Shown: piece by piece, positions 40,690 through 64,000 of the stretch | Layout of the letters: each line of letters starts with the position of its first letter | How positions within the stretch are numbered: position 1 is the stretch's first letter | IMG/VR virus record: IMGVR_UViG_2636416120_000006 | Location: 18,598-82,597 of that record | Strand: one strand, 5' to 3' | Length of the DNA: 64,000 nucleotides | Source: a virus | Taxonomy: Duplodnaviria > Caudoviricetes | Translations under genes and position numbers: made by a program | Notes under the pieces: model-generated | Seen by the model: the letters and a program-made list of their open reading frames with translations, nothing else | Database searches by the model: none | Told to the model about the DNA's origin: nothing

Positions 40690-40710
40690 CATCCCTGAGA
40701 GGGACAAATG
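40690..40710 (+). repeat. Representative copy of the recurrent hairpin-RBS motif CATCCCTGAGAGGGACMAATG (about 26 copies window-wide)
   Basis: Exact core ATCCCTGAGAGGGAC at 40691, 41042, 44945, 46644, 50089, 51331, 54566, 57252, 57591 and 61475, plus variants. Confidence 0.95.
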
Positions 40711-41049
40711 CAAATCGCCAGCATCAGCGGCCTCGACAACGATGTGCTTCGTTTCTCCTTCACCAACGGTTCCACATTGGAACTGCGGGACACCGGTCAG
40801 TCGTGCTGCGAATCCCGCTACATGACCTGTGACGACGACCTCAAGCCCATCATCGGCGCCACCCTGCTCGGGTGGGAGATCCGCGACGTCACCTACGATG
40901 GTGACGACTACGACGTTCACGAGATCCAGTTCCTGGTCGTGAACACCTCCCAGGGCTCCTTCACCGTCGCCAACCACAACGAGCACAACGGCTACTACGG
41001 CGGCTTCTCGATCGAGGAGCAGTGGACCCACCCTGCAACCCATCCCTGA
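40708..41049 (+). CDS. Conserved phage hypothetical protein
   Basis: SCCESRY...NEHNGYYGG; flanked by the motif on both sides. Confidence 0.75.
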   Translation: MQIASISGLDNDVLRFSFTNGSTLELRDTGQSCCESRYMTCDDDLKPIIGATLLGWEIRDVTYDGDDYDVHEIQFLVVNTSQGSFTVANHNEHNGYYGGFSIEEQWTHPATHP

Positions 41050-41058
41050 GAGGGACAA

Positions 41059-41451
41059 ATGACCCAGCTGATCACCACCGCCCAGATCAAGGCGGCGAAC
41101 CTGGCCGCCATCGAGAACCAGACTCTCGCGGCCATCAAGCCCAACTTCGACAACACCGGCCGGTGCAGCTACCTCGCCGGCTGCGCCATCAGTGTCGCCA
41201 TGTCACCCGAGACCCTCTCGGTCATCCGCGAGGAGCGCTCCGACGGCGAGAACATTCGTGAGCTCGTTGATATGGGCGTCGTGTCCGTCGAGGACACCAC
41301 GCTCGCCTACCGGCTGCAGGGCCTCCACGACAAGCTCGCCCTCAGCGGGTTCATCGACGACTGGACCATCGCGTGGTTCCGCGCCCTTGCCCCCTACGAG
41401 GGCCAGCGCATCACGATCGAGCACTACCGGTCCGTGATCGAGGCGCTCTGA
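41059..41451 (+). CDS. Cys-motif paralog family A, copy 1
   Basis: TTAQIKAANL..CSY..GCAI..RLQ..HD shared with 46242. Confidence 0.8.
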   Translation: MTQLITTAQIKAANLAAIENQTLAAIKPNFDNTGRCSYLAGCAISVAMSPETLSVIREERSDGENIRELVDMGVVSVEDTTLAYRLQGLHDKLALSGFIDDWTIAWFRALAPYEGQRITIEHYRSVIEAL

Positions 41452-41604
41452 ATGCGTGACACCCTCGACGACGCCATCAACCACGCCAAGGCCCATCCAG
41501 CGCCTTACACCTGGTACGTCTACGAGACGCCGTCGGGCAAATTCATCATCAGCGACTACCCGCCCACGTCCTGGCCCAGTTTCATACACAGGGCCACGAT
41601 CTAA
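41452..41604 (+). CDS. Hypothetical protein, 50 aa
   Basis: Manual translation MRDTLDDAINHAKAHPAPYTWYVYETPSGKFIISDY...; fills the gap exactly. Confidence 0.55.
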   Translation: MRDTLDDAINHAKAHPAPYTWYVYETPSGKFIISDYPPTSWPSFIHRATI

Positions 41605-41620
41605 TTCCCGCGAGGAACCA

Positions 41621-41986
41621 ATGACCCAGTTCAAGCACACTCCCGAAGAGGCCCGCACCAAGTGGGTCGAGGCCCTCCGCTCCGGCGAATACCAGCAGGG
41701 CAAGCACCAGCTGCGCGACGGCGACGGTTTCTGCTGCCTCGGCGTGGCCTGCGATCTGTTCGCCAAACTCGAGGGGATCGGCGAGTGGGACAACGGCCAC
41801 TTCAAGATCCAGCACGAGCGCGAATTCGGCGTCCTGCTCACGCCCGTGCGCACCTGGCTCGGCCTCCAGAGCAACACCGGGGACATCAACCCGACCAAGT
41901 GCCTCACCTCCCTCAACGACCGCGGCTACTCCTTCGCGGAGCTCGCCGACGTGATCGAGGAGAAGCCGGGAGACCTGATCGCATGA
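41621..41986 (+). CDS. Cys-motif paralog family B, copy 1
   Basis: FKHTPEEAR..WV.ALRSG.Y.Q..FCCLGVACD. Confidence 0.85.
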   Translation: MTQFKHTPEEARTKWVEALRSGEYQQGKHQLRDGDGFCCLGVACDLFAKLEGIGEWDNGHFKIQHEREFGVLLTPVRTWLGLQSNTGDINPTKCLTSLNDRGYSFAELADVIEEKPGDLIA

Positions 41987-42195
41987 ACGCCCCCGAACAC
42001 ATCCCGATCTTCCAACACGACGCCGACATCAAGGCCGGCATCGTCAACATCTACGAGCCCGACAACCCCGACTTCACCCGGTGCCCGGGCACGGTGTTCG
42101 ACATGCGCTTCGACACCCCCGACGCCCTCTACCGGATCCGGATCATCCCCGGCGGCCGGAAGCGGACAAAGGCGGCCTATCATGCTCACTCGTGA
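41983..42195 (+). CDS. Hypothetical protein
   Basis: ATGA coupling; start MNAPEH. Confidence 0.55.
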   Translation: MNAPEHIPIFQHDADIKAGIVNIYEPDNPDFTRCPGTVFDMRFDTPDALYRIRIIPGGRKRTKAAYHAHS

Positions 42196-42523
42196 TGATC
42201 TCAACGCCGCACTCACCGCGGCTCGAGAGCTGCATCGAACCGAACCTCATGCAGCCAACCTTCCGCTCCATCAAGCGATGGTCGATGCGATCATCAAGCT
42301 CGGGGGAATACCCCCGGGCCGAGCAAACCCCGACGACATCCCCTCCAACTGCGTTATCGATATCGGCACCGAGTTCAACGGCAACGGCGGCGGTGACACC
42401 TTCGACACCATCGAGCAAGCGGCCCAGTTCGCGGCGCAGTGGATCCGCGGTCTCGACTGGTCCGACGTCGGTTCCGACGGGGATGTCCGACTCATCGTTG
42501 GACTGAGGGATCGCGACGCATGA
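42182..42523 (+). CDS. Hypothetical protein
   Basis: Overlapping chain of genes. Confidence 0.6.
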   Translation: MLTRDDLNAALTAARELHRTEPHAANLPLHQAMVDAIIKLGGIPPGRANPDDIPSNCVIDIGTEFNGNGGGDTFDTIEQAAQFAAQWIRGLDWSDVGSDGDVRLIVGLRDRDA

Positions 42524-42846
42524 CCGCCCCCACTCCCGACCAGATCAAGATCCTCGTCGGCGCCGTGCGCGAGATCCTCGATGATTTTCCCTACATCGGG
42601 GAGAAATTCGACCCTCTGAGAGAGGCCCTCAAGCCGTTCGAGGAGCCTGCCCCCACCCAGACACCCGTGCTCAAGACCTATCGGGTCGACGTCCGCCGGA
42701 TGTACTACTCGACCGCGACCATCGACGTCGAGGCACGGGACGAGCACGACGCCCGATATCAGGCGCTGCATATCATCGAACCCAACTGGCCCGAGCCGGA
42801 CGTGTTCGGCGACGAGATCGACAGCATCACGGAGGTCACGCCGTGA
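42520..42846 (+). CDS. Hypothetical protein
   Basis: ATGA coupling; start MTAPTP. Confidence 0.6.
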   Translation: MTAPTPDQIKILVGAVREILDDFPYIGEKFDPLREALKPFEEPAPTQTPVLKTYRVDVRRMYYSTATIDVEARDEHDARYQALHIIEPNWPEPDVFGDEIDSITEVTP

Positions 42847-43019
42847 ACATCCTCTACGCCCTCGTCCTCGTCACCCACCTCGGCGCCGGCCCCTCCACCG
42901 TCGAGGTCGTCGACACGGGCCTCACCTTCGAGGACTGCGTCCCGCACCTGACCTACCTCGCGCTCCCGGGGGACCAGTACGTGGTCACCGAGTGTGTGGT
43001 GGATCGCCAGCCTTTCGCC

Positions 43020-43222
43020 GAGTAGGTCCTAGCCCTACTCCGGACCGGACCCCGGCGCAGGGGGTCGGTCGCCCCAACGACCTCGTCCGGCTCTGCCGCA
43101 AGCAGACATGGCGATGTACCACCTCCCCCGTCCGTTGCCCTGCGCCGGCGCGGATGGGACAACTGGGTATGAGCGAACACAGTGCCCCACCCAGGCTCAC
43201 AACCAGTGCCTGGGTGGGGCGG
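43020..43222 (+). ncRNA. Candidate structured RNA with kissing loop
   Basis: Several helices; loops GGCGCAG (43054-43060) and CTGCGCC (43140-43146) are exact complements. Confidence 0.45.
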
Positions 43223-43231
43223 GAGAACAAC

Positions 43232-43459
43232 ATGTCGGACATCTTCGAGAAGCATCCCCGCCCTTGGCGTGTCACGGACGAGTATCGTCGGTGGTTCACC
43301 GAGAACATCCACAATGAGAACCCTCCAGCCATTGTGGATGCCGCCTACGTCGAAGACGCGCCCTACTGCATCGATCATGTCGTGGTCGATGCCACTGAGG
43401 GCTTGAGGCTGGATCTCGATGTTGCCGATCAGATCGTGAACTGGGCCAACACAAAATGA
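43232..43459 (+). CDS. Hypothetical protein
   Basis: GGGAG SD; start MSDIFEKHPRPW. Confidence 0.6.
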   Translation: MSDIFEKHPRPWRVTDEYRRWFTENIHNENPPAIVDAAYVEDAPYCIDHVVVDATEGLRLDLDVADQIVNWANTK

Positions 43460-43663
43460 AGCTCAAATATGAGGGCCGCGACATCAGCGTCCAGGAAGCA
43501 GTCGAGGAAGCTATCTCGCCTGGCCCGAGATACGAGGGTGATCCCCTCGAGTTCGAGGTCGAGCAGCTCACCAAGATGATGGGCCGGCTGCTCAACACCT
43601 TGCCGATCGCCGTCGCCCATCGGATCATCGACGATTACCGCATCCACCTGGTCGGGGACGACA

Positions 43664-44071
43664 ATGCCACTTCGGGTTGAACTCCCGCGCGTGCTGCAAC
43701 TCGCCGACCCCGTCCAGACACCACCCTGGTCAGGGTGTCACAGCCTCGACCCCGGCCTGCCCCGGATGCTGGCAGCGGATGGAGATTTGCTCGACCAGTT
43801 GGTCGAGCCCGGAGCCGCGACGTTGCAGGTTCACGCCCGTCGAATCGCCTGGTTCATCGTCAACGGATGGCACCAGCCGATCCACGTTGATGTCGGTGTC
43901 CCTTCCCTCGGCTTCACACCACGATGGCCGATCGAGGACGGCAACCACCGTCTCTATGCCGCGAAGCTCCGCGGCGACACCCACATTCTGGTGACGATCT
44001 CCGGTTCCGTTGACCTGGCAGCGGAGCTGTTCGGCGTCACTGCCGACGTGATCATCGAACAGGACCCCTAA
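43664..44071 (+). CDS. ParB/Srx N-terminal-like domain protein
   Basis: PIHV...IEDGNHRLYAAKLRG motif. Confidence 0.7.
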   Translation: MPLRVELPRVLQLADPVQTPPWSGCHSLDPGLPRMLAADGDLLDQLVEPGAATLQVHARRIAWFIVNGWHQPIHVDVGVPSLGFTPRWPIEDGNHRLYAAKLRGDTHILVTISGSVDLAAELFGVTADVIIEQDP

Positions 44072-44245
44072 GACCAGTCAAGTCCCCGCCCTGATCCACA
44101 ACCTCACCCTGGGCGGGGTGTTGACTCGTCTCCCATCGCGACGACGCGGAACCACTCTCGAACAAACACGGGAGCCGCGGCGGGGACCGTCTGGGCAGTT
44201 TGATGCCGGCGAACGCCGGTCAGCCCCACCAGCACGAGCCAACCA

Positions 44246-44683
44246 CTAGCGACCATCATACCAGCGCCAACCTTGCCACTGCTTCCAATACGGTGCATCA
44301 AACCGTGGTCGGAGCTTGCCCAAGTAAACGTTCGCGTTGCACGACCCGCGCCCTCTAACTATTACGTCAGCCGGATCAAAGAGATCGGCGTGCTTGCGGA
44401 TGAACAGAGACAGATTCTTGAACCTATAGACGGTTCCATCTGGACTGAGCAGGGACCACTCACGAGCAGCGAAGTGTGTCTCGAAAGGACCTGCGATCGG
44501 CGAGCAGTGGACGGCCTCGAGACGCTTCTGATCGTTCGGAGTCGACACTCGTGAACGCCGTTTGAGCTCGTTTATGCAGGCACGACGCCCGCAGGTTTTC
44601 TTTGGGCGCGTCCAATGTTGGATAAACTGCACCTGCTTCCCACAAATCAAGCATGTCACGTCGAAGGTGTACTTCGTAGCCAT
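44246..44683 (-). CDS. Zn-finger plus homing-endonuclease-type DNA-binding domain protein
   Basis: CLICG..TCGRRAC; WSLLSPDGTVYRFKNLSLF; opposite strand and lower GC. Confidence 0.55.
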   Translation of the reverse strand: MATKYTFDVTCLICGKQVQFIQHWTRPKKTCGRRACINELKRRSRVSTPNDQKRLEAVHCSPIAGPFETHFAAREWSLLSPDGTVYRFKNLSLFIRKHADLFDPADVIVRGRGSCNANVYLGKLRPRFDAPYWKQWQGWRWYDGR

Positions 44684-44741
44684 GCCCTAAATCTAGCACG
44701 AACAACTTCGTGTTCGACAACCCCATTCCCGAGAGGAACCA

Positions 44742-44891
44742 ATGTCTCGCACCGAGCGCCGCACCCTGGCGCGGCGGCTGATCCGCCGTGCCCAGGTCCT
44801 GAAGGACCTCGCCCTCACCACCCGGAACCACACCCTCTTCAACGACGTCCGGGCCTTGCGCAACCAGGCCGCGAAAATTCTGGCCGGTTGA
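44742..44891 (+). CDS. Small basic protein, 49 aa
   Basis: MSRTERRTLARRLIRRAQVLKDLAL... behind hairpin RBS. Confidence 0.6.
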   Translation: MSRTERRTLARRLIRRAQVLKDLALTTRNHTLFNDVRALRNQAAKILAG

Positions 44892-44932
44892 TATCTACCC
44901 CGTTTGCCCCGTGGCCGGACTCCGGTCATCTT
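44886..44932 (+). promoter_or_regulatory. Box-associated promoter
   Basis: GGTTGATATCTACC, then TTGCCC-N17-CATCTT. Confidence 0.65.
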
Positions 44933-44961
44933 CCACTTCGACACATCCCTGAGAGGGACCA

Positions 44962-45429
44962 ATGCAGATCCACCTGACCATCCTCGTCAACCCGGATCCT
45001 ATGGCCCAGAGGATTCCCGACATCAAGACGCTGCGGGAGATCACGGGCTTCGGCCTCAAGCACTCCAAGGACATGATCGAGGGCGTCGCCTACGACGTCA
45101 TCCTCTCGGTCACCCAGCTCAATGAGCTCCTGGTCGCCTTCCCCAACCGGATCCGCATCGGCGAGCCGGTCCACGACCAGTTCGAGCACTACGAAGTCGA
45201 TAGGAGCGATGAGCATCCCACCGACGTCGTTCTCCATATGGATCACGACAAGCACTGGGACGCTCTCCACACCTTGAGCATCCGTCCCGAGCGCATGATC
45301 ACCGGTGTTCGGCTCTCCCGCGACCGCGCCATCGAGATCCTCGGCCAGATCGCCATCGACGGCATCGTGCTTCCGTCGATCGCCAGAGCCATCAATCCCA
45401 ACGTCCTGGTCGCCAGGACCAATCCCTAA
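44962..45429 (+). CDS. Protein with ribosomal L7/L12 C-terminal-like domain
   Basis: RIPDIKTLREITGFGLKHSKDMIE versus bL12 K..VIK.VREITGLGLKEAKDLVE. Confidence 0.65.
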   Translation: MQIHLTILVNPDPMAQRIPDIKTLREITGFGLKHSKDMIEGVAYDVILSVTQLNELLVAFPNRIRIGEPVHDQFEHYEVDRSDEHPTDVVLHMDHDKHWDALHTLSIRPERMITGVRLSRDRAIEILGQIAIDGIVLPSIARAINPNVLVARTNP

Positions 45430-45455
45430 CCCTCCCTCATTCCCGCGAGGAATCA

Positions 45456-45854
45456 ATGTTCAAGCACACCCCCGAGCAGGCCCGAGCGGCCTGGGTCGCG
45501 GCCCTGCGTTCCGGCCAGTACAAACAGACCACCGACACCCTCAAGGACGACTACGGTTTCTGCTGTCTCGGCGTCGCGTGCGACGTCTACGCCAAGCTGG
45601 AGCCGGAAACCGGTGCCAGTTGGGACGGCGACACCTTTGTCACCCCCAACCACGACGACGACCAGAACGACGCCACCCTGCCCACCCTCGTGCGCAATTG
45701 GCTCGGCCTCGACGGCTTCAGTGGTCCCCTGACGCGTGAGGCCACCCTGGCGACGTGCGCCGCCTCTCTCGCCAATCTCAACGACGACAAGGGCTTCACG
45801 TTCGCCCAGCTGGCGGACGTGATCGAGAACAAGGGAGTGGTGCTCCGTGGTTGA
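45456..45854 (+). CDS. Cys-motif paralog family B, copy 2
   Basis: FKHTPEQARAAWVAALRSG..FCCLGVACD. Confidence 0.85.
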   Translation: MFKHTPEQARAAWVAALRSGQYKQTTDTLKDDYGFCCLGVACDVYAKLEPETGASWDGDTFVTPNHDDDQNDATLPTLVRNWLGLDGFSGPLTREATLATCAASLANLNDDKGFTFAQLADVIENKGVVLRG

Positions 45855-46254
45855 GTTCAAGCACACTCCCGACCAGGCCCGTGCGGCCTGGGTCGCCGCT
45901 CTCCGCTCGGGCGAATACAAGCAGGGCAAGGGGAGGCTGCGAAGCTACCACGCGCCCTCCTATTGCTGCCTCGGCGTGGCCTGCGATGTGTTCCTCAAGC
46001 TTGAGGAACGGGGCGAGTGGCTCGATACCGTGTTCGATGTCAGCGGTGACAGCGCGGGCACCATTCTGCCACGCTCCGTCATGCGCTGGCTCGGCCTGAC
46101 CAGCGAGGGCGGGGATCTCGTCGAGGTGATCGCCGCCAGCAGCGAAGATGACGACCCCGCCGAAGACCTGATCGCTGTCAACGACCGCGGCATCGGCGAC
46201 TTCAACTTCATCGCCGACCTGATCGAGGGAGGGAAGGTCCAGTGCAACACCTGA
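45847..46254 (+). CDS. Cys-motif paralog family B, copy 3
   Basis: Same motifs as the other family B copies. Confidence 0.85.
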   Translation: MVEFKHTPDQARAAWVAALRSGEYKQGKGRLRSYHAPSYCCLGVACDVFLKLEERGEWLDTVFDVSGDSAGTILPRSVMRWLGLTSEGGDLVEVIAASSEDDDPAEDLIAVNDRGIGDFNFIADLIEGGKVQCNT

Positions 46255-46634
46255 CCACCGCCCAGATCCGGGCCGCCAACCTTCGTGCCATCGAGGAAGG
46301 CACCCTCGCCGCGATCGCCCACCCGGGCAAGGACGGCTGCAGTTACATCCGAGGATGTGCCATCGGGTGCGCTCTCAACGATGAGACGCGCCAGAAGATC
46401 ACCAACGATCTGCTCGACGCCACCCGTCTCGTCATCCTGCTCGAGGAGCCCGACCTCCTCCAGGTCGAGGACGTCGCCCTCGCCTGCCGGCTGCAGAGCG
46501 TCCACGACGCCCTCGCCCGCGGCGACATGATCGCGTCCGAGCACGCCGCGGCCTTCCCCGTCCTCACCCCCTTCATCGGCGAGCCCATCGAGCTCGACCA
46601 CTACCGGGCCGTGATCGAGAGCCTGCCCACCTGA
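46242..46634 (+). CDS. Cys-motif paralog family A, copy 2
   Basis: TTAQIRAANL..CSY..GCAIG..RLQ..HD..HYRAVIE. Confidence 0.8.
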   Translation: MQHLTTAQIRAANLRAIEEGTLAAIAHPGKDGCSYIRGCAIGCALNDETRQKITNDLLDATRLVILLEEPDLLQVEDVALACRLQSVHDALARGDMIASEHAAAFPVLTPFIGEPIELDHYRAVIESLPT

Positions 46635-46664
46635 TCCATCCACATCCCTGAGAGGGACCAATCC

Positions 46665-47039
46665 ATGTCCGATTTCAAGCACACCCCTGAGCAGGCGAGA
46701 TCCGCGCTTGTCACCGCGCTGCGTTCCGGCGACTACAAGCAGGCCGAAGGTCAACTGCGCAGAGGCGATCGTTTCTGCTGCCTTGGCGTCGCGTGCGACC
46801 TGTTCGCCAAACTGGAGGAGACAGGCCACTGGGATCCCGAGGACGAGGAAATCTTCCGGACCGCCGATGGCGGATGGGGTGACGCTCTACTGCCGGACAC
46901 CGTTCGCCGCTGGCTCAACTTCCGGACGGTGAACGGGGAGTTGTTCAGTGACGAGACCTCTCTTGCCGGCATGAACGATCGCGGAGCCTCTTTCGCCGAT
47001 CTGGCGAAGGTCATTGAGCAGGGCCAGGCCAATGCCTGA
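46665..47039 (+). CDS. Cys-motif paralog family B, copy 4
   Basis: Same motifs as the other family B copies. Confidence 0.85.
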   Translation: MSDFKHTPEQARSALVTALRSGDYKQAEGQLRRGDRFCCLGVACDLFAKLEETGHWDPEDEEIFRTADGGWGDALLPDTVRRWLNFRTVNGELFSDETSLAGMNDRGASFADLAKVIEQGQANA

Positions 47040-47466
47040 CTTCAAGCACACCCCCGAACAGGCGCGTGCGGCCTGGGTCGCCGCCCTGCGCTCCGACGCC
47101 TATCAGCAGAGCCAGGGCGCCCTGCGTGACGTCAACTACCACACCGAGAAGAGCAGCTTCTGTTGCCTCGGCGTCGCCTGCGACGTGTTCCTGAAGCTCG
47201 AGGGCCGAGGCGAGTGGGACTGCGACGACTACTTCGTCGTCGGCGACTATGACAGCAGCACTGCCCTCCCCGATCCCGTCGCCGAATGGCTCGGCCTCTC
47301 GTCCTCGCTCGGCCGCCTGACCGAGGAGATCGACTACAACAGCATCCGGGTCGCCAGAGACCTCACCGACCTGAACGACAGCGCCAAATACTCGTTCGGC
47401 GACATCGCCGACCTAATCGAGGGCGGCAAGGTCGCTCTCTCCCACATTCCCGCGAGGAACCAATGA
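47032..47466 (+). CDS. Cys-motif paralog family B, copy 5
   Basis: Same motifs; start MPDFKH. Confidence 0.85.
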   Translation: MPDFKHTPEQARAAWVAALRSDAYQQSQGALRDVNYHTEKSSFCCLGVACDVFLKLEGRGEWDCDDYFVVGDYDSSTALPDPVAEWLGLSSSLGRLTEEIDYNSIRVARDLTDLNDSAKYSFGDIADLIEGGKVALSHIPARNQ

Positions 47467-47888
47467 ACGTCGAACGTCTCACCGAGCTCGTGCGCCTGCT
47501 GCGCGAGCCTTCCCAGGTCCCCGGCGTGTGGGGGTTCTGGATGGGTACCTGGTACGAGCAGTTTTCAGGCGTCGAGCACGTCGTCAACGCCGAAGCCTAC
47601 GACGAGGAGAACAACTGCGGCACGACGTGTTGCGCGATGGGCCTGGCCGGGCTGCACAAGTCCTTTCAGGACCAAGGCCTCACCTACGACCCGGAGAGGG
47701 CCATTTTCGCCGTCGATGGGCGCCGGTCCAACGGCTTCGATGCTGCCGCGATCTTCTTCGACATCCCGTTCGATGACGCACTAGCGATCTTTGACGCGCA
47801 CTACAGCCTCTACGGCACCAGCGACCCCAGCCCCGAACAGGTCGCCAATGTCATCGAGCGCTACATCGTCGACGGGAGCCTGCCGTGA
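47463..47888 (+). CDS. Cys-motif paralog family C, copy 1
   Basis: RL..LV.LLR...NCGTTCCAMGLA...PEQVANVIERY. Confidence 0.8.
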   Translation: MNVERLTELVRLLREPSQVPGVWGFWMGTWYEQFSGVEHVVNAEAYDEENNCGTTCCAMGLAGLHKSFQDQGLTYDPERAIFAVDGRRSNGFDAAAIFFDIPFDDALAIFDAHYSLYGTSDPSPEQVANVIERYIVDGSLP

Positions 47889-48295
47889 ACAAGCCCCGCC
47901 TCCTCCGCCTCGTCCAGCTGCTGCGCGCCCCGCTGCCCGACGAGCTCAGCGGGTTCTCAATGAGTTTCTTCAGGACCAACGTGGACCTGAACGACTTCGG
48001 CGCGGACAACGCAGTGTGGCGCCCTGGGTTCAATTGCGGCACGGTCTGCTGCGCGCTGGGTCTGGCTGCCCTCGACCCCGAGTTTCAGACCGCTGGCCTC
48101 CACCTGTCCGGCGGGAACGTCTACTTCGAGAACTCGAACAGCTACGATGCCGGGGCTGAGTTCTTCGAAATCCCGATCGATCATGCCGAGCGCATCTTCT
48201 ACCCCGACGACGACCTCTACGGGCCCCGGCCTCACCGCCCCGAGACCGTCGCCGACGTGATCGAGCGGTACGTGGAGACGGGGGTGCTTCCGTGA
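47885..48295 (+). CDS. Cys-motif paralog family C, copy 2
   Basis: NCGTVCCALGLA...PETVADVIERY. Confidence 0.8.
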   Translation: MNKPRLLRLVQLLRAPLPDELSGFSMSFFRTNVDLNDFGADNAVWRPGFNCGTVCCALGLAALDPEFQTAGLHLSGGNVYFENSNSYDAGAEFFEIPIDHAERIFYPDDDLYGPRPHRPETVADVIERYVETGVLP

Positions 48296-50077: not shown

Positions 50078-50105
50078 TACCAAACACCATCCCTGAGAGG
50101 GACCA

Positions 50106-54991: not shown

Positions 54992-55291
54992 ATGATCACT
55001 CTCTACGCCATCCAGCACAAGCCGACCGGCCATTTCCTGCCGGCGTCCAACCGGAAGCGCCGCGGGTATACCAACGACAAGCCGAAGGATCCTTTGAAGG
55101 TTCCGCCTCGCCTCTTCCGTCGGAAGGGGGACGCTAAGAACGCCCTGAGGTGGTGGCTGAAGGGGATCACCCACGTGTCCTACGTCGGCTCGTACGACGA
55201 CTACAACGAGGATTGGCACACCAAACCCGCCCCCGACCGGAAGGCCGAGGAGATGGAGGTCGTTCCGATGAGGCTTACCTATGACGATTGA
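54992..55291 (+). CDS. Hypothetical protein
   Basis: ATGA coupling; start MITLYAIQHKPTG. Confidence 0.6.
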   Translation: MITLYAIQHKPTGHFLPASNRKRRGYTNDKPKDPLKVPPRLFRRKGDAKNALRWWLKGITHVSYVGSYDDYNEDWHTKPAPDRKAEEMEVVPMRLTYDD

Positions 55292-55784
55292 GAAAGCCCG
55301 CGCCTTCGCGATCGGCGCCCACAACGGGATCGGTCAGGTCCGGAAGTACACCGGCGAACCCTACTGGTGGCACTGCCAGAACGTCGCCTGGTGGGTCCGC
55401 ATGGCGGACTACTGGACCGACGAGATGGCAGCCGCGGCCTGGCTCCACGACGTGGTCGAGGATACCAAGGTAACGCATCAGCAGCTGCTGGATGAGTTCG
55501 GCCGGGAAATCGCCTCCCTCGTCCAGCAGGTGTCTGACGTCTCCAGGCCGGGCGACGGAAACCGGAAAGCCCGGAAGCAGCTAGATCTCGAGCACCTAGC
55601 CGAGGCCTCGCCGGCGGCCAAGACGATCAAGCTCGCCGACATCATCGACAATACCGAGTCCATCGTCCGCCACGACCCGAACTTCGCCAAGGTTTACCTC
55701 GCCGAGAAGGCCGCCCTTCTTGAGGTCCTGACCGAGGGTGACCCGGGGTTGTGGGCGATCGCCAAACGACAGGTGACACCGTGA
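55281..55784 (+). CDS. HD-domain hydrolase, small alarmone hydrolase (Mesh1/SpoT-HD) type
   Basis: AH..Q.RKYTGEPY..H...AAWLHDVVEDT...IKLADIIDN. Confidence 0.85.
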   Translation: MTIEKARAFAIGAHNGIGQVRKYTGEPYWWHCQNVAWWVRMADYWTDEMAAAAWLHDVVEDTKVTHQQLLDEFGREIASLVQQVSDVSRPGDGNRKARKQLDLEHLAEASPAAKTIKLADIIDNTESIVRHDPNFAKVYLAEKAALLEVLTEGDPGLWAIAKRQVTP

Positions 55785-57268: not shown

Positions 57269-57598
57269 ATGAGGCTCTTCCTCGACGACGAGCGTCCCCC
57301 GCCCAACGACGGCAACGACTGGGTCATCGCCCGGACCTACTTCGACGCCGTCGCCAAGACCGTCGAGTGTTGGCTCGCTGGTGACCTGCTCACCTACGTC
57401 AGCTTCGATCACGACCTGGGCGAGGGTCCGAACGGCGCCGAGTTCGCTGATTTCCTCGTCATGAACGATGTGGAGAACAACGGCGCCCTGCTCCCCCACG
57501 ACTTCACCTACTACGTCCACAGCCAGAACCCGATCGGCAAAGCCAACATCGAAGGCAAGCTGGAGGGGTATCTCACCTTCAAACGCAACCATCCCTGA
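57269..57598 (+). CDS. Cyclic-phosphate-processing receiver domain protein
   Basis: LFLDDER, SFDHDLG, HSQNPIG motifs. Confidence 0.8.
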   Translation: MRLFLDDERPPPNDGNDWVIARTYFDAVAKTVECWLAGDLLTYVSFDHDLGEGPNGAEFADFLVMNDVENNGALLPHDFTYYVHSQNPIGKANIEGKLEGYLTFKRNHP

Positions 57599-57607
57599 GA
57601 GGGACCA

Positions 57608-59542
57608 ATGAAAATCAACCTTGCTGTCGCTCCGGTGGAGCGATCCCAGGACTTCGTCGAGACGGAGTTCTACATCCCGCCGAGCGCGAACCACAAGCTG
57701 GCCGAGCTCGTCGTCAAGAATCTGTACGAGAGCCAGATCCGCTTCGTCGTCGAGCTCGTCGCCAATGCCTACGACGCGGCGCCAGGCAAGGCGCCTCGGA
57801 TCAAGTTCCCGACCAAGCTCGAGCCCTGGTTCGAGGTCCAGGACGAAGGCCTCGGCATGAGCCCGGCGTTCATGCGGTCGACCTACTGCCAGATCTTCTC
57901 GTCGACCAAGGACGACGACGACACCAAGATCGGCGGCTGGGGCATGGGCCGGCTGTCCGCCCTGGCCATCACCCAGTCCTACATCCTCATCAGCGACGAC
58001 GGTGACACCCGGAACACCTACAACGTGTTCCGCGGCGAGAACGGGATGCCGCGGCTCTCGCTGATGCACAGCGGCCCGAGCCAGAAGACGGGCGTCACCG
58101 TCACCGTTCCGATCCCGCACGACAAGATCGACGAGATCCGGCGGGAGGGCGCCAAGCTGCTGCCCTTCTTCAGCCCGAAGCCGAACTCCAACCTGGAGAT
58201 CACGCCTGTCGAGCTGACCTACGAGAACAAGGCCGACGGCTGGGCCATCCGCAAGTTCGCTCCGGACAGCAAGAACGTCGTGGTCATGGGGGGCTACCCC
58301 TACCCCATCGACTACAGCTCGCTCAGCTACGGGGACTCCTACAGCATCCTGAGCAGCTTCAACCGGTTCGTGTTCACCGCCCCGGTCGGCACTTTCGACG
58401 TCACGTCGAACCGTGAGCGTCTTCGGTACACCGACAAGACCAAGGTGGCGATCGACGCTCTGGTCGAGAAGATCAAGTCGGGCTTCCACGAGTCGATCCA
58501 GGATCTGATCCTGGCCCAGCCGACCTACTGGCTGGCCTGCCAGGAGTTTTCCCGGATCGAGCGTCCTCTTCCGGGGTCCCTTTCCGAGCTGATCAAGGGC
58601 AAGATCAAGTGGCAGGGCCGTGTGGTCTCCAATCAGATCAAGGTCGTCGGCCACTCTCTCGGTGAGCTGGACAACGAAGGTAAGCGAGACCGCTACCACC
58701 GGCCGAGCAAGCCGACGTTCGGTCACCGCTACGAACCGTACGTCTATCCAATCTCCAGCTACCACGACAACAAGGAGCCGGTTCTCGTCTGGATCGACGA
58801 CGATACGATCAAGAACCAGGCCCGTCGGATCTCGGAGGCCTGCGAGGTTCGTGCCAAGATCTACACCTTCAAGGATCTCGACGTCGTCAAGCAGCTCGGC
58901 GATCCGCCCTACCTGACCCTGTCTCAGCTGCCCGAACCGGCGCCGATCCAGCGGAGCCGCTACAGCACCGGACCTCGCGCCAAGGTCAAGATCTACGACT
59001 GGATCCGGGGGACGTGGGACGAGGAGACCAGCTGGGACATCAACGCCGGCGGTATCTACGTCGATATGGAGAATGGCGATATCTCGTCAGAGGACGGCGA
59101 TCTCCTCTGCGGAGCTCGCCAGTGCGCCGAGATCCGCCCCGACCAGTTGATCGCGATCCCGAAGTCCAGCTTCAAGACCCGCGACGGCTACACCCCGTTC
59201 AAGACTTTCGTCGACGCCAAGTTGAAGGAGCTTCTGACACGGGACATGAAGAAGGCCCTCGCCAACGTGGTGGGCTTCGATTCCATGGAGTGGAGGAAGC
59301 GAGAGTTTCTCGTCACCCTCACCACCTATGCAGACCGAGCCAAGGAACTCCGCCCCTTCCACAAAGTAGTGGAGGACGCGGAGAAGCTACGCCCCTTGGC
59401 CCACGCGGCCAAAACCAGAGTGGAACTGAAACCCACCCTTTCCTTCGACCTCGAACCCCTCAAGGCGAAGCGTCCCCTTCTCTTCGAGGTGCTCGGCCAT
59501 ATCAGAAACCCTTCACCCGAACTCATCAACAAAATCCTGTGA
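57608..59542 (+). CDS. rIIA: rIIA-like protein (N-terminal GHKL ATPase)
   Basis: ELVANAYDA, DEGLGMS, SSTK..IGGWGMG, SNRERL; followed by an rIIB-like gene. Confidence 0.8.
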   Translation: MKINLAVAPVERSQDFVETEFYIPPSANHKLAELVVKNLYESQIRFVVELVANAYDAAPGKAPRIKFPTKLEPWFEVQDEGLGMSPAFMRSTYCQIFSSTKDDDDTKIGGWGMGRLSALAITQSYILISDDGDTRNTYNVFRGENGMPRLSLMHSGPSQKTGVTVTVPIPHDKIDEIRREGAKLLPFFSPKPNSNLEITPVELTYENKADGWAIRKFAPDSKNVVVMGGYPYPIDYSSLSYGDSYSILSSFNRFVFTAPVGTFDVTSNRERLRYTDKTKVAIDALVEKIKSGFHESIQDLILAQPTYWLACQEFSRIERPLPGSLSELIKGKIKWQGRVVSNQIKVVGHSLGELDNEGKRDRYHRPSKPTFGHRYEPYVYPISSYHDNKEPVLVWIDDDTIKNQARRISEACEVRAKIYTFKDLDVVKQLGDPPYLTLSQLPEPAPIQRSRYSTGPRAKVKIYDWIRGTWDEETSWDINAGGIYVDMENGDISSEDGDLLCGARQCAEIRPDQLIAIPKSSFKTRDGYTPFKTFVDAKLKELLTRDMKKALANVVGFDSMEWRKREFLVTLTTYADRAKELRPFHKVVEDAEKLRPLAHAAKTRVELKPTLSFDLEPLKAKRPLLFEVLGHIRNPSPELINKIL

Positions 59543-59549
59543 GGATCAA

Positions 59550-60761
59550 ATGCTTCCGTACAACATTACGAGCGACAGTCTGACTGTCGTGCTGCCGACT
59601 GGCGTGACCAAGGTCATCACCAGCGGCCATCCGAACTTCGAGGCGACGAAGGCCGCCATCAAGGCCCATGAGTGGGATCGTGTGCCGGACCTGGTCGACG
59701 TCGCCGCCTCGATCCGCAACTACCTCGAGGGCGCCCAGGGCCGCCTCGTCCTGGATGAGAACGGCAACCTGACCTTCGACGGAGCCGAAGTCCACCACGG
59801 CCTGGTCGGCAAGATCATCGATATCCGCGACGAGGGTCACGACCCGGTCCCGCTCGTGAACTTCCTCGAGCGGCTGCTGCAGAACCCGTCCAAGCGGTCG
59901 CTGGACCAGTTCTACAACTTCATCGAGCGCAACCACATCACCATCCAGACCGACGGCATGGTGGTCGCCTACAAGGGCGTCCGGGACGACTACAAGGACG
60001 AGCACTCCGGCACCTTCGACAACTCGATCGGTAAGCGGCACTCGATGCCGCGCAACCAGGTCGACGACGACGCGGACCGCGGCTGCAGCTACGGCTTCCA
60101 CGTCGGCTCCTACGACTACGTCAAGGGCTTCGGCCATCGGAAGATGCTCGTCCGGTTCGACCCGAAGGACGTCGTCTCGGTCCCGCACGACGCCAACTGC
60201 ACCAAGATCCGCGTGTCGGAGTACGAGGTGATCGGCGAGGTCGACGCCGGCACCTTCGCCCAGGCCGAGCCCTTCAAGCAGACCGTGATCGCCTCGGCCG
60301 GTGATGAGCGGAAGGTCCTGAACGAGCTCCGGACCTACTCCGCCCTGCTCCGCGCCCTCGCCGACGATGGCGCGGTGCTCGAAGAGACGGTCGTTTTCGT
60401 CACCACCGACGAGCTCGAGACCAACGACGAGATCGAGGACGCCATCATCGAACTCGATCACGTCGTGTTCAACGGGCTCGAGATCGACGACTGGAAGCTC
60501 GCTTCCTGGACCGAGATCGAAGACACCGAGGGCGCTGTCAACAAGGACGACTACGAGCTGTTCGCCGTCGACGTTCACTTCTTCGACTACAATCCCTACG
60601 GCGATGACAACGAGACCGTCGAACTCGTGAAGGGGAAGGTCTGGGCCGCCTCTCGCTACGACGTCGACGAAGAGGTCGACGACCTGATCCAGAGCGACGT
60701 GCTGCCGACCAACGGCGCCTCGTACGAGGACTACGAGACCACCATCGTCGACACCCACTAA
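59550..60761 (+). CDS. rIIB: rIIB-like protein with acidic C-terminal extension
   Basis: LLQNPS, DGMVVAYKGV, MPRNQVDDD..CSYGFH, DVVSVP..KIRV..YEV. Confidence 0.82.
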   Translation: MLPYNITSDSLTVVLPTGVTKVITSGHPNFEATKAAIKAHEWDRVPDLVDVAASIRNYLEGAQGRLVLDENGNLTFDGAEVHHGLVGKIIDIRDEGHDPVPLVNFLERLLQNPSKRSLDQFYNFIERNHITIQTDGMVVAYKGVRDDYKDEHSGTFDNSIGKRHSMPRNQVDDDADRGCSYGFHVGSYDYVKGFGHRKMLVRFDPKDVVSVPHDANCTKIRVSEYEVIGEVDAGTFAQAEPFKQTVIASAGDERKVLNELRTYSALLRALADDGAVLEETVVFVTTDELETNDEIEDAIIELDHVVFNGLEIDDWKLASWTEIEDTEGAVNKDDYELFAVDVHFFDYNPYGDDNETVELVKGKVWAASRYDVDEEVDDLIQSDVLPTNGASYEDYETTIVDTH

Positions 60762-62699: not shown

Positions 62700-62981
62700 A
62701 TGTTCATCTCGACCGCCAGGGCCGCGCGGCACCTGGATTTCGATCCTTCGACCTTACAGGCGATGGCAAGGCGGGGGGTTGTTCCAGGTGCAAAGAAGTT
62801 CGGCCGCCTATGGCGCTTTGAAAGCGAGCTCTTCTTTGCCTGGGTCAAGGACGATAGTGACAGGCAACGAGGGGTGAAATGCCAAGGGTCTTCCAACGGA
62901 AAAACAGTCAAAGCCTCTACATCGCCTATACGAAAGACGGAGTCGAAGTATATGAGTCTGCTCGGACTCAAGACCCGGTAA
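62700..62981 (+). CDS. xis: Excisionase-like HTH protein
   Basis: ISTARAARHL..STLQAMARRG.VPGAKKFGRLWRF; overlaps the integrase gene. Confidence 0.8.
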   Translation: MFISTARAARHLDFDPSTLQAMARRGVVPGAKKFGRLWRFESELFFAWVKDDSDRQRGVKCQGSSNGKTVKASTSPIRKTESKYMSLLGLKTR

Positions 62982-64000
62982 TCGCCCAGCAACTTCTTGA
63001 TCAACGTCTCGCGGAACAAAACGCCGGCCTAGGCCCCACATGGCAATGGGCTGTCGAGGAGTTCTTCGAGAAGGCGATCATCAAGCCGAAGACCCGAGCC
63101 TGTTACCTCTCGAGCGCGAGGAACGTTCACCCGTTCCTCGGGCATCTTCGCATGAAGCAGGTGACGACCACGGTGCTGCGCGAGGTCATCACTGAGCGAC
63201 GGAAGCAGGTTGTGCGGAACAAGCCGGTAGGTGACACGGCGATCCGTCGGGACCTGGCATTTGTCAGTTCGGTCTTCACCCTGGCACTCGAGACCGAGGA
63301 GGAGTGGACGGAGGGGTTTGAGCATCCGGTCCACCGGCTGTCGAAAACCACGACCAAGAACAAGCGGCTCAAGCGCACCACGCGCCGGCGGAGGTTCTTC
63401 TCCCCGCGCGAGTTCGGTGCCCTGCTCTGCGCCTGCACGACCCAGCAGCAGCGTCGGATCCTGAAACTGGCCGTCTCCACCGGCATGCGCCGGCAGGAGA
63501 TCGAGAACCTTCAATGGGAGCGGAACGTCCGCCTCTCTCGTCGCGAGATCGTTCTCTGGGACGACGACACGAAGACGAGCGAACCGAGGACGATCGCCCT
63601 GAACGACATCGCTGTCAGGGTCCTGTCCCTGACAGTCCGGAGCAACCAGTGCCCCTACGTTTTCTGGCACATGGAGATCGACGAGAAGGGTCGTCCGGTC
63701 CCTGTGAAGTACGCCTCGTTCGCTCAGTGGTGGAAGGGCGTGAAGAAGCGAGCGATCGCTCGGTCACCCGATTCGCGCTTCCACGACCTGAGGCGGACGT
63801 TCGCTTCCTGGTGGATCCAGAGAGGTGGCGACTGGGAGGTGCTGAGAACGATGCTGGGTCACTCGCAGTCGGAGATGACGGCCAACTATGCCTACCTTCG
63901 GACCGGGGACCTGCACGATGAGATCGCCCGACTGTCAGGGCCGCAACCCGGACAGGACCTTCTGATCGATGACGAAGAGGAGGACGACGAGGATGAATAA
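62879..64000 (+). CDS. int: Tyrosine integrase
   Basis: TGMRRQE, TKT, FHDLRR, LGH, TANYA catalytic residues. Confidence 0.95.
   Translation: MPRVFQRKNSQSLYIAYTKDGVEVYESARTQDPVIAQQLLDQRLAEQNAGLGPTWQWAVEEFFEKAIIKPKTRACYLSSARNVHPFLGHLRMKQVTTTVLREVITERRKQVVRNKPVGDTAIRRDLAFVSSVFTLALETEEEWTEGFEHPVHRLSKTTTKNKRLKRTTRRRRFFSPREFGALLCACTTQQQRRILKLAVSTGMRRQEIENLQWERNVRLSRREIVLWDDDTKTSEPRTIALNDIAVRVLSLTVRSNQCPYVFWHMEIDEKGRPVPVKYASFAQWWKGVKKRAIARSPDSRFHDLRRTFASWWIQRGGDWEVLRTMLGHSQSEMTANYAYLRTGDLHDEIARLSGPQPGQDLLIDDEEEDDEDE

Follow-up and report, generated by a model that had tools for sequence, protein, structure and literature searches.

What are nine small cysteine-motif genes of three paralogous families doing in one prophage? 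The window, the whole 64,000-nt stretch of DNA that we analysed, contains them as intact plus-strand genes of 121-144 amino acids, five of family B and two each of families A and C.

41059..41451, plus strand: A1, family A, 130 aa; an open reading frame with a start-associated motif directly upstream.
41452..41604, plus strand: a putative, unassigned 50-aa open reading frame between A1 and B1; its ATG abuts the A1 stop.
41621..41986, plus strand: B1, DUF8296/phrog_18067, 121 aa, a dispersed copy; phrog_18067 E 3.1e-21, precomputed PF26948 (P0003).
45456..45854, plus strand: B2, DUF8296, 132 aa, opening the block of seven; phrog_18067 E 6.4e-20.
45847..46254, plus strand: B3, DUF8296, 135 aa; phrog_18067 E 3.1e-18, GTG start overlapping the B2 end.
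46242..46634, plus strand: A2, family A, 130 aa; an open reading frame homologous to A1, GTG start overlapping the B3 end.
46665..47039, plus strand: B4, DUF8296, 124 aa; phrog_18067 E 2.6e-16.
47032..47466, plus strand: B5, DUF8296, 144 aa; phrog_18067 E 1.9e-13, start overlapping the B4 end.
47463..47888, plus strand: C1, family C, 141 aa; family profile and a weak phrog_889 match (E 8e-4).
47885..48295, plus strand: C2, family C, 136 aa; homologous to C1, GTG start overlapping the C1 end.

A sequence-only reading of this DNA had claimed nine Cys-motif paralogs in three families at these starts, and the open reading frame list, alignments and genome scans bear this out. It put the lengths at 120-145 aa, which agrees with those measured, and the seven consecutive genes (45456-48295) and recurring A-then-B order that it described are both seen in the map. 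Gene ends in the block overlap or nearly abut, and A precedes B twice (A1, the 50-aa frame and B1; A2 then B4). All nine are intact and share one orientation, some are translationally coupled, and every one encodes an acidic protein (pI 4.3-5.1). A six-frame scan of the genome found no further copies of A, B or C, leaving totals of two, five and two; a profile of the five B copies matches exactly B1-B5 in the 6.93 Mb genome (E 1e-54 to 1e-61).

The array sits in the non-structural (early or accessory) arm of a ~83 kb prophage integrated at tRNA-Arg. The prophage encodes tail, tape-measure, capsid and terminase proteins, a primase-helicase, and an integrase that is followed directly by the tRNA-Arg; GC content is 63.6% in its contig vs 69.7% in the rest of the genome. 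An 18-nt motif heads the array genes singly or in sub-blocks.

41041-41058: motif copy heading A1.
41603-41620: motif variant heading B1.
45438..45455, plus strand: start-associated 18-nt hairpin motif heading B2-B3-A2.
46643-46660: motif copy heading B4-B5.
47445-47462: motif copy heading C1-C2.

The motif has 18 matches in the window vs 0.22 expected, and 21 in contig C1 (the contig, not the gene), with an ATG immediately after it, and no spacer, in 19 of the 21. It occurs in a single orientation, just upstream of ATG starts of non-structural genes only, with hardly any copies in the host genome. It includes a Shine-Dalgarno core and folds into a hairpin of 5 bp, one pair of which covaries.

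Family B is DUF8296 (PF26948/phrog_18067), a large and almost exclusively viral family. All five copies match phrog_18067 (E 1.9e-13 to 3.1e-21) over about positions 4-127 of the 129 in the profile, and PF26948 is recorded for each of them, as well as precomputed on 120 of 120 homologues listed. Candidates passed E 1e-3 in 7933 of 8000 scored cases. The neighbours of B2 in the Atlas are DUF8296 clusters that are 96-100% viral. Searched for in other genomes related to the host, the family turned up in none of 43 from its order and in 2 of 400 from its class. The literature yielded no paper under the names PF26948 (DUF8296) or phrog_18067.

B2-B5 are 48-51% identical to B1, and 40 columns are invariant across the five copies; these include the blocks FKHTP, ALRS, CCLGVACD, WL, ND and IE that the earlier reading had singled out. 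Conserved in every copy are ALRSG-Y-Q, where helix 1 ends and the first hairpin strand lies, C-C-L-G-V-A-C, where helix 2 begins, and N-D ahead of the last helix. Of 28 family-conserved positions, B3 keeps all 28, B2 and B5 keep 27, and B1 and B4 keep 26. Across DUF8296 the polar residues R18, S19, Y22, Q24, C36, C37, C42, N109, D110 and E124 are invariant or nearly so, and the same set is invariant in phages of Ralstonia, Synechococcus, Alteromonas, Bradyrhizobium and Tunturiibacter. The paralogs differ mostly in two loops, at about residues 49-74 and 85-104.

DUF8296 is confidently predicted to be an alpha/beta domain (AlphaFold2 model of B2, pLDDT 95.6), and it matched no solved fold. The best Foldseek match of the B2 model in the PDB has E 2.6, its matches in BFVD are only uncharacterized proteins, and family B has no significant match among PDB sequences. 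The scaffold shared by the families that the earlier reading suggested has weak support for B and C and is not shown for A. In the models, B and C show an identical order of helices and hairpins, cross-match the same BFVD models and share 11 chains, aligned over the same chain ranges, between their lists of 50 weak PDB neighbours each; profile-profile and HMM comparisons of B with C were no better than reversed-sequence controls. A fold common to B and C is possible from these models. Its extension to family A is unsupported: the Atlas model of A2 (pTM 0.82) reaches at most TM 0.41 with any structural neighbour, and DUF8296 is not among them. Families B and C each conserve only two or three Cys and no His, so that the metal site suggested earlier would not be of the classical four-ligand kind. 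B-B and C-C fusions occur in metagenomes (P0007, P0090, P0144, P0150, P0259).

Family C is a second large family, related to phrog_889. C1 and C2 are 48% identical over 91 residues (E 5e-24; 43% in alignment), and the family profile finds 8313 cluster representatives at E 1e-3. Within this large unnamed family, phrog_889 is matched by 65 of 93 aligned members; C2 itself has no phrog_889 match at E 0.01, C1 only the weak one listed above, and family C has no match in the local copy of Pfam. C1 and C2 resemble the phrog_889-related family in their end-to-end alignment, the same N-terminal helix and the motif C-G-T-x-x-C-A-x-G-L-A, and they keep 20 and 18, respectively, of its 21 conserved positions. 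An invariant Cys pair (C52 and C57) lies at the start of a helix, 53-64, in the C1 model (pLDDT 75.4); apart from this pair the conserved residues are mostly hydrophobic. The one hint of an enzyme, a match of the protease SENP1 to the family C profile, is not significant (E 0.19) and spans 52 residues without the protease His and Asp. In 8 of 77 loci (best 80 of 558 confirmed matches) a DUF8296 gene has a family C gene no more than 6 kb away, as it does in 1 of 4 loci retrieved with C as the query; these co-occurrences stem from perhaps five independent lineages.

Family A is a near-orphan. A1 and A2 are 45% identical (BLASTP, E 6e-31; 48% in a MAFFT alignment), A1 has no match in Pfam, PHROG or NCBIfam, and the single outside homologue of the family is one metagenome protein. 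Searches of Pfam, PHROG, NCBIfam, the PDB and the literature tied none of A, B or C to any named family, solved structure or paper, and gave no direct sign of the anti-defence binders or nucleotide-signal sponges that the earlier reading proposed.

Tandem amplification of DUF8296 has happened repeatedly, in separate phage lineages, with the resulting copies kept afterwards. The sequence-only reading had called five-fold paralogy uncommon in phages, which is not so for this family: among 77 viral IMG/VR loci (from the best 80 of 558 confirmed matches, near-identical phages such as L007/L026 and L008/L027 included), 27 hold at least two copies within 6 kb, 5 hold at least five, and the maximum is eight. 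A single DUF8296 gene within 6 kb, without A and mostly without C, is found in the other 50. The same loci reveal no conserved functional neighbour of DUF8296; the largest real neighbour cluster, a helicase, occurs in 11 of the 77 (best 80 of 558).

In a tree of 72 copies, drawn solely from sources that hold at least three (15 loci and the window, 16 in all), the window's five B copies form one clade (SH-aLRT 97). The arrays L006, L050, L012 and L052 are also single clades, and one related phage group has orthologous copy sets in common. A 45-row set that included the closest outside homologues did not reject monophyly of the five B copies (p-AU 0.70), and likelihood was higher for the tree constrained to it. 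A starred branch (96) parts B1 from B2-B5 in the free tree of 116 rows, so a single origin of the five is not secure.

Selection on the copies was estimated by NG86, with intervals from bootstrap. Orthologous pairs have overall dN/dS of 0.09-0.24 (10 of 12 pairs computable) and, split by region, 0.07-0.16 (core) and 0.18-0.54 (loops). For the three pairs of window paralogs, whose dS of 0.65-1.04 may be saturated in a genome with strong GC3 bias, the core gives 0.27-0.41 (bootstrap intervals below 1) and the loops 0.82-1.37. Two unsaturated paralog pairs in L012 have loop values of 1.33-1.47; the paralog loop intervals include 1 (0.30-6.97). The loops, on which the earlier reading had proposed measuring dN/dS, are thus near-neutral between paralogs and constrained between orthologs. 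Paralog loops show relaxed or near-neutral divergence, and positive selection is not proven. The diversified repertoire proposed earlier gains support, as the copies are intact and keep the conserved residues, with fast paralog loops and a constrained core and orthologs.

We tentatively favour, at somewhat less than even confidence, the explanation that the array encodes a diversified set of soluble proteins, made early, that interact with the host. Each protein would be soluble, acidic and cytoplasmic and produced early in infection. The conserved residues may perform a family-wide job, the binding of one conserved ligand or host component, and the variable loops would give each paralog a partner of its own. 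Taken together, the paralogs would then make up a repertoire of host-factor binders or inhibitors, serving counter-defence or host take-over. Being widespread, confined to phages and often multiplied in tandem, DUF8296 is a good candidate for a family of proteins that act on the host. A polar set invariant across phages of very different hosts is as good a fit to an enzyme or small-molecule binder as to a protein-protein inhibitor, or a better one.

DUF8296, and perhaps family C, could instead be a small thiol-dependent enzyme or redox protein, which we consider unlikely. Its nucleophile or redox centre would be the invariant Cys that N-caps helix 2, aided by Arg/Ser/Tyr/Gln and Asn-Asp, while the choice of substrate, for instance among host proteins, would fall to the variable loops. 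Thiol enzymes typically have a Cys at a helix N-terminus; C36 immediately precedes helix 37-48 in the B2 model, the C52/C57 pair of family C is analogous, and the ten polar residues are kept in phages of unrelated hosts. Against this, a conserved His is absent from both families, the conserved residues of C are mostly hydrophobic besides its Cys pair, no enzyme family or fold was matched (SENP1 against family C gives only E 0.19), and up to eight tandem copies of one enzyme would be unusual for a phage.

Less probable again are binders of a small molecule or metal (a nucleotide signal, a metal or an Fe-S centre), in line with the sponges of the sequence-only reading, in which the Cys pair possibly bridges subunits and more copies give higher dosage or a wider ligand range. 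The proteins are small, acidic, early and phage-restricted, their polar cluster is constant across host phyla, as expected for a universal ligand, and the B-B and C-C fusions are compatible with oligomers. A metal is disfavoured by the two or three conserved Cys per chain and lack of a conserved His. Tad1, Tad2 and Acb2 are phage nucleotide-signal sponges, small and soluble, and the array proteins are of roughly the same size. No match to these sponges was found in Pfam, PHROG, PDB sequence or PDB fold searches; without sequence or fold similarity to any solved protein the array proteins have none to known sponge families, although a missing match excludes no family. To our knowledge, neither multi-copy arrays in sponge families nor a conserved Cys motif in Tad1, Tad2 or Acb2 is a known trait.

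It is improbable that the paralogs form one hetero-oligomeric complex (A-B, B-B, C-C) with an early housekeeping role, for example in replication or transcription. Translational coupling within B2-B3-A2, B4-B5 and C1-C2, the recurring A-then-B order, the position of arrays near replication genes (the primase-helicase here, helicase and Toprim genes at other loci) and the orthologous copy sets retained by related phages would all suit such a complex. The lone DUF8296 genes in 50 of 77 loci (best 80 of 558), with no A and mostly no C, mean that B needs no partners to work; phages differ in copy number, from 1 to 8 (best 80 of 558 confirmed matches), family A has its one metagenome relative elsewhere, and no neighbour is conserved. 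That the copies are functionless, decaying duplication leftovers is disfavoured and very improbable, near-neutral loop divergence between paralogs notwithstanding, given nine open frames, conserved start signals, 26-28 of 28 (B) and 18-20 of 21 (C) family-conserved positions kept, a core dN/dS of 0.27-0.41 with intervals below 1, and purifying selection on orthologs elsewhere (0.09-0.24).

Compared with Pfam PF26948 (DUF8296), that is PHROG phrog_18067, the five B genes are full-length members and the domain itself has no differences. Compared with DUF8296 at large, the B array is combined with families A and C and lies in an integrated prophage, and the family is rare in bacterial genomes. 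The motif resembles the start-associated sequences of Cluster K mycobacteriophages, in the published description of those elements, in being short and conserved, with a Shine-Dalgarno core, in one orientation just before the ATG of non-structural genes, and almost missing from the host genome (PMC3203893). The Cluster K motif is a 13-nt sequence, GGGATAGGAGCCC, described as non-palindromic (PMC3203893); the prophage motif is 18 nt long, has another sequence, forms a hairpin and in 19 of 21 copies abuts the ATG.

The repertoire that we favour would resemble tandem arrays of diverged immunity proteins. Pfam and PDB fold searches detected no sequence or fold relation to the SUKH superfamily, whose tandem arrays of diverged paralogs are described as repertoires of immunity proteins in the account of these loci (PMC3113570). 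Unlike SUKH arrays, which that account (PMC3113570) places in bacterial toxin-immunity loci, the prophage genes lie in an early phage region with no linked toxin gene. Like the SUKH 'polyimmunity' loci as described there, they form an array of small paralogs (up to six for SUKH) in which adjacent copies are often distantly related (PMC3113570). SUKH arrays are read as a repertoire against different partners (PMC3113570), and by analogy the prophage array may work in this way.

The window carries an array of nine genes that encode proteins of 121-144 amino acids and fall into three paralog families (A, B and C). The open reading frames are as follows.

Open reading frames of the nine-gene array
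41059-41451, + strand, A1 (family A)
41621-41986, + strand, B1 (family B)
45456-45854, + strand, B2 (family B)
45847-46254, + strand, B3 (family B)
46242-46634, + strand, A2 (family A)
46665-47039, + strand, B4 (family B)
47032-47466, + strand, B5 (family B)
47463-47888, + strand, C1 (family C)
47885-48295, + strand, C2 (family C)

The other B copies are 48-51% identical to B1, and the alignment has 40 invariant columns, which include the motif blocks quoted in the sequence-only reading. BLASTP relates A1 to A2 (E 6e-31) and C1 to C2 (E 5e-24), and when the complete 6.93 Mb assembly was scanned in six frames, these nine genes and no further copies came up. The reading frames, BLASTP, alignment and scan together uphold the earlier call of nine paralogs in three families. 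Seven of the genes (45456-48295) stand in a row with overlapping or abutting ends, and the gene order A then B is seen twice. Between B1 and the main array there is a 145 amino acid open reading frame on the minus strand (44246-44683), alone within the + strand block. It has a Cys-rich N-terminus (C-x2-C ... C-x5-C), has no match in Pfam or PHROG, and is possibly a mobile or moron gene that was inserted there.

The array is located in the long non-structural + strand arm of a siphovirus-like prophage, which is integrated and about 83 kb in size. The window corresponds to positions 51064-115063 of a 119,858-bp contig (C1 in front of a coordinate), which has a GC content of 63.6% compared with 69.7% in the remaining genome. 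Features that mark the element are listed here.

Marker features of the prophage
Window, - strand, genes for tail-tip J-like protein, tape-measure protein, capsid and gpA-type terminase
Window, + strand, primase-polymerase/D5 helicase
62879-64000 (window end), + strand, tyrosine integrase
C1:115086-115162 (just past the window, directly after the integrase), tRNA-Arg(ACG)

The tRNA gene is probably the attachment site, and we judged the left prophage limit to be near C1:31.8 kb from the motif distribution described below and a shift in GC3. The arm that holds the array consists mostly of unknown genes, among them genes for a DUF7448 protein, an HD_4 domain protein, a GHKL-type ATPase and a methyltransferase. 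The HD_4 gene (55281-55784, E 2.5e-14) has the domain type of (p)ppGpp hydrolases and may encode an early-region alarmone hydrolase. A 644 amino acid protein with a GHKL-type ATPase domain (57608-59542; HATPase_c_3, E 4.8e-8) is followed by a 403 amino acid protein without a match (59550-60761), and the pair may make up a module, accessory or defence-like, close to the end that carries the integrase. In its host portion the contig encodes a permuted, two-piece tmRNA (C1:9804-10135), a type that occurs in Alphaproteobacteria.

An 18-nt motif, CATCCCTGAGAGGGACCA or its variant CATTCCCGCGAGGAACCA, immediately precedes start codons in the non-structural genes. It matches 18 times in the window (659-61491), where 0.22 matches are expected, for example at 40690-40707, 44944-44961, 50088-50105 and 57590-57607. 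The contig has 21 matches (C1:31857-112554), 19 of them directly followed by ATG, and the other 6.8 Mb has only three weak matches with two mismatches. Over its GAGG Shine-Dalgarno core the motif folds into a hairpin of 5 bp, and motif positions 4 and 14 covary (C-G versus T-A). It may serve as an operator of translation or as a processing site. It heads, or is close to, both the 644 and 403 amino acid protein genes. The same motif stands at the start of the gene immediately upstream of A1 (40708-41049), which belongs to DUF7448/phrog_2650 (E 2.6e-13), another uncharacterized phage family. As set out in the available text on the start-associated sequences of Cluster K mycobacteriophages (PMC3203893), those elements are likewise found in one orientation just upstream of non-structural starts and are rare in the host. 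The sequence differs from the motif printed there, which makes ours an analogue and not the same element. This start-associated hairpin gives the window a translational signal that is testable separately from the array.

The B genes are unremarkable representatives of a family that is catalogued but uncharacterized. All five match phrog_18067 (E 1.9e-13 to 3.1e-21) across nearly all of its 129 profile positions, and PF26948 is the precomputed assignment for the five window proteins and all 120 homologues listed; its name, DUF8296, was taken from the Atlas of structure-model clusters (Pfam 38.1). A search with a copy of Pfam that lacks PF26948 matched none of the nine proteins at E up to 1, and NCBIfam gave only chance-level hits for them (E 0.016-0.026, far below cut-offs). 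Across 116 sequences, 28 DUF8296 columns are at least 90% conserved, and the five B copies retain 26, 26, 27, 27 and 28 of these, including ALRSG-Y-Q, CCLGVAC, LP-V-W-G, L-ND and F-IA-IE. The family is large, with 7933 of 8000 scored candidates passing E 1e-3, and its Atlas clusters are 96-100% viral. DUF8296 is rare in bacterial genomes (0 of 43 others of the host's order, 2 of 400 others of its class). A tblastn search with B2 returned 12 records from phages of unrelated hosts, every one annotated as hypothetical, and the 7.4-kb region had no megablast match in 50,697 phage records. The fold is confidently predicted, and the model has no solved match. The literature searched had no paper under PF26948, DUF8296 or phrog_18067, and nothing relevant on tandem paralogs in phage counter-defence.

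Five-fold paralogy had been regarded as uncommon in compact phage genomes, a view that the family at large does not bear out. We counted DUF8296 copies within 6 kb in 77 IMG/VR loci, kept from the best 80 of 558 confirmed hits; near-identical phages among them are L007/L026 and L008/L027.

DUF8296 copies within 6 kb in the 77 viral loci kept from the best 80 of 558 hits
1 copy: 50 loci
2 copies: 12 loci
3 copies: 6 loci
4 copies: 4 loci
5 copies: 1 locus
6 copies: 2 loci
8 copies: 2 loci

With at least two copies in 27 of these 77 loci (best 80 of 558 hits), and up to eight, five copies are within the normal behaviour of DUF8296. A tree was built from 72 copies of 16 sources with at least three copies each, leaving out single-copy loci. 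In it the five window copies form one clade (SH-aLRT 97), as do the arrays of four viral loci (L006, L050, L012 and L052) each on its own, and in one group of related phages the arrays are made up of orthologous sets. In a poorly resolved 116-row tree, to which the closest outside homologues were added, a starred branch parts B1 from the other four. On a 45-row set the tree with the five copies together reaches the higher likelihood and is not rejected (p-AU 0.70). Duplication within the lineage is the simplest reading, and it is not secure for B1.

We found no conserved neighbour gene of DUF8296. The two clusters with most members turned out to be antisense shadows of DUF8296 itself; those of a helicase, an RF-1 domain protein, an SPFH protein and a Toprim protein come next. 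In the phages with the largest arrays (6-8 copies), L007 and the related loci L026, L015, L008, L027 and L023, the RF-1 protein, whose domain is peptidyl-tRNA hydrolase-like, is encoded directly upstream of the array (L007:4348-4974) and an SPFH/Band 7 protein a few kb off, in six loci each.

The C genes appear to belong to a second catalogued but uncharacterized family. The phrog_889 match is weak for C1 (E 8e-4) and absent for C2 at E 0.01. A profile from both copies and nine homologues found 8313 representatives, and 65 of the 93 that were aligned match phrog_889. The match of this profile to SENP1 among PDB sequences is not significant (E 0.19). In 8 of the 77 viral loci (best 80 of 558 hits), a DUF8296 gene has a family C gene no more than 6 kb away, and with family C as the query (an 11-row alignment) one of four loci has the two that close together. 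Some of these phages are related, which leaves about five independent lineages. Fused forms are B-B or C-C only. The metagenome tandem fusions P0007, P0090, P0144, P0150 and P0259 (234-405 amino acids) may be genuine proteins of two domains, or gene calling may have read through from one copy into the next. Family A comes close to being an orphan, with one outside homologue in a set of 5.8 billion proteins, none in 43 genomes of the host family and none in the genome, viral and metagenome contig collections searched. A match of its profile to RecA in PDB (E 9e-5) is an artefact, in which six identical weak stretches (i-Evalue 970 each) were summed in fused RecA constructs.

The three families had been suggested to share a metal-binding scaffold. 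Comparison of their sequences demonstrates no link: profile-profile comparisons, shallow and deep, gave nothing significant, reversed controls scored higher when the models' secondary structure was added, and HMM cross-searches scored below reversed controls. With hhalign the probability is 1.7% for B and C and 4.5% for C and A, and the aligned part is the Cys motif only. The models give indirect hints of a structural link between B and C. Both have the order helix, hairpin region, helix starting at the Cys motif, beta hairpin and three or four helices, the last being a conserved C-terminal helix. The two lists of 50 weak PDB neighbours, one per model, have 11 chains in common, which are aligned over the same ranges, and each model matches some of the other's neighbours among the predicted viral structures of BFVD. 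For family A, the neighbours of the Atlas model (pTM 0.82) do not exceed TM 0.41 and include no DUF8296 protein.

Conserved cysteines number three in family B (C36, C37 and C42, at one helix start, with no conserved His), two in family C (C52 and C57) and two in family A (C36 and C42). In none of the families did we find the four conserved Cys/His ligands of a classical zinc-binding domain; a putative metal site bridged between subunits is possible. The DUF8296 proteins combine an invariant polar set with two paralog-specific loops. That this set stays unchanged in phages whose hosts differ widely is the main argument for two other accounts of the array. One is that the products are thiol enzymes or redox proteins, which we consider unlikely; the other is that they bind a small molecule or metal, in line with the nucleotide-signal sponges first imagined for them, which we consider decidedly unlikely. 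Searches of Pfam, PHROG, PDB sequences and PDB folds gave no match to the known anti-defence sponges Tad1, Tad2 and Acb2 or to other solved phage inhibitors. If the products did prove to be enzymes or cofactor binders, a function would still be assigned to a large block of viral dark matter. There is a small chance that the array encodes a hetero-oligomeric housekeeping complex.

We compared selection on the two loops of DUF8296 (residues about 49-74 and 85-104) with that on the remaining core, using pairwise Nei-Gojobori dN/dS over 39-82 codons. The overall ratio could be computed for 10 of 12 orthologous pairs from other phages and lies at 0.09-0.24; in such pairs the core alone gives 0.07-0.16 and the loops alone 0.18-0.54. 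Among the window paralogs the core gives 0.27-0.41 and the loops 0.82-1.37, and in the L012 array the loops give 1.33-1.47, where dS is only 0.2-0.4. Bootstrap intervals of the loop values span 1 (0.30-6.97) and window core values stay below 1, so the loops appear to have diverged about neutrally between paralogs, with the copies then conserved. Such loop values do not demonstrate positive selection. All copies look functional by their conserved positions (26-28 of 28 in B, 18-20 of 21 family-conserved positions in C). With these positions kept and core dN/dS below 1 in the window, the idea that the array consists of decaying duplicates is scarcely credible.

Our own reading, which we put forward tentatively, is that the array is a repertoire of soluble acidic proteins with a common conserved site and individual loops for different host or competitor factors. 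The proteins are acidic (pI 4.3-5.1), and the genes are intact, co-oriented, partly translationally coupled and in the early region. The family is restricted to phages and has been amplified repeatedly, after which copies were retained. The conserved site would be common to all copies, and the loops of each copy would engage a different host or competitor factor. Judging by the element order of the model, ALRSG (end of helix 1), Y-x-Q (first hairpin strand) and C-C-L-G (start of helix 2) are probably adjacent, and loop 49-74 would leave the far end of helix 2, which suggests a conserved end and a variable end.

New here are the recurrence of DUF8296 arrays across phages, the co-localisation of family C with DUF8296, a predicted DUF8296 fold without a solved match, and the apparent concentration of divergence between paralogs in two loops. 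Counted together, DUF8296 and the relatives of family C run to many thousands of proteins in phages. Genes that engage variable host factors would be expected to show just such recurrent tandem amplification, with orthologous copies retained and divergence focused on loops. It is therefore sensible to include these families in screens for anti-defence or host take-over functions and to determine their structures. For such work the window has a compact test set, as nine genes of the three families stand together in a single prophage. A broader proposal, which we regard as doubtful, is that DUF8296 and phrog_889-type proteins share a fold that has not been seen before, in which a Cys pair caps the N-terminus of a helix, and form a new, very widespread class of phage host-interaction proteins, whose arrays (up to eight copies) are modular inhibitor repertoires against host defence effectors. 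If this is true, the arrays, with their amplification and paralog-specific loops, would be a phage-side counterpart of bacterial polyimmunity loci.

The repertoire that we propose would work in a mode like that of SUKH immunity proteins, which, in the available text of PMC3113570, occur as tandem arrays of diverged copies. The likeness to the arrays described there is in the manner of working only, and homology is not evidenced.
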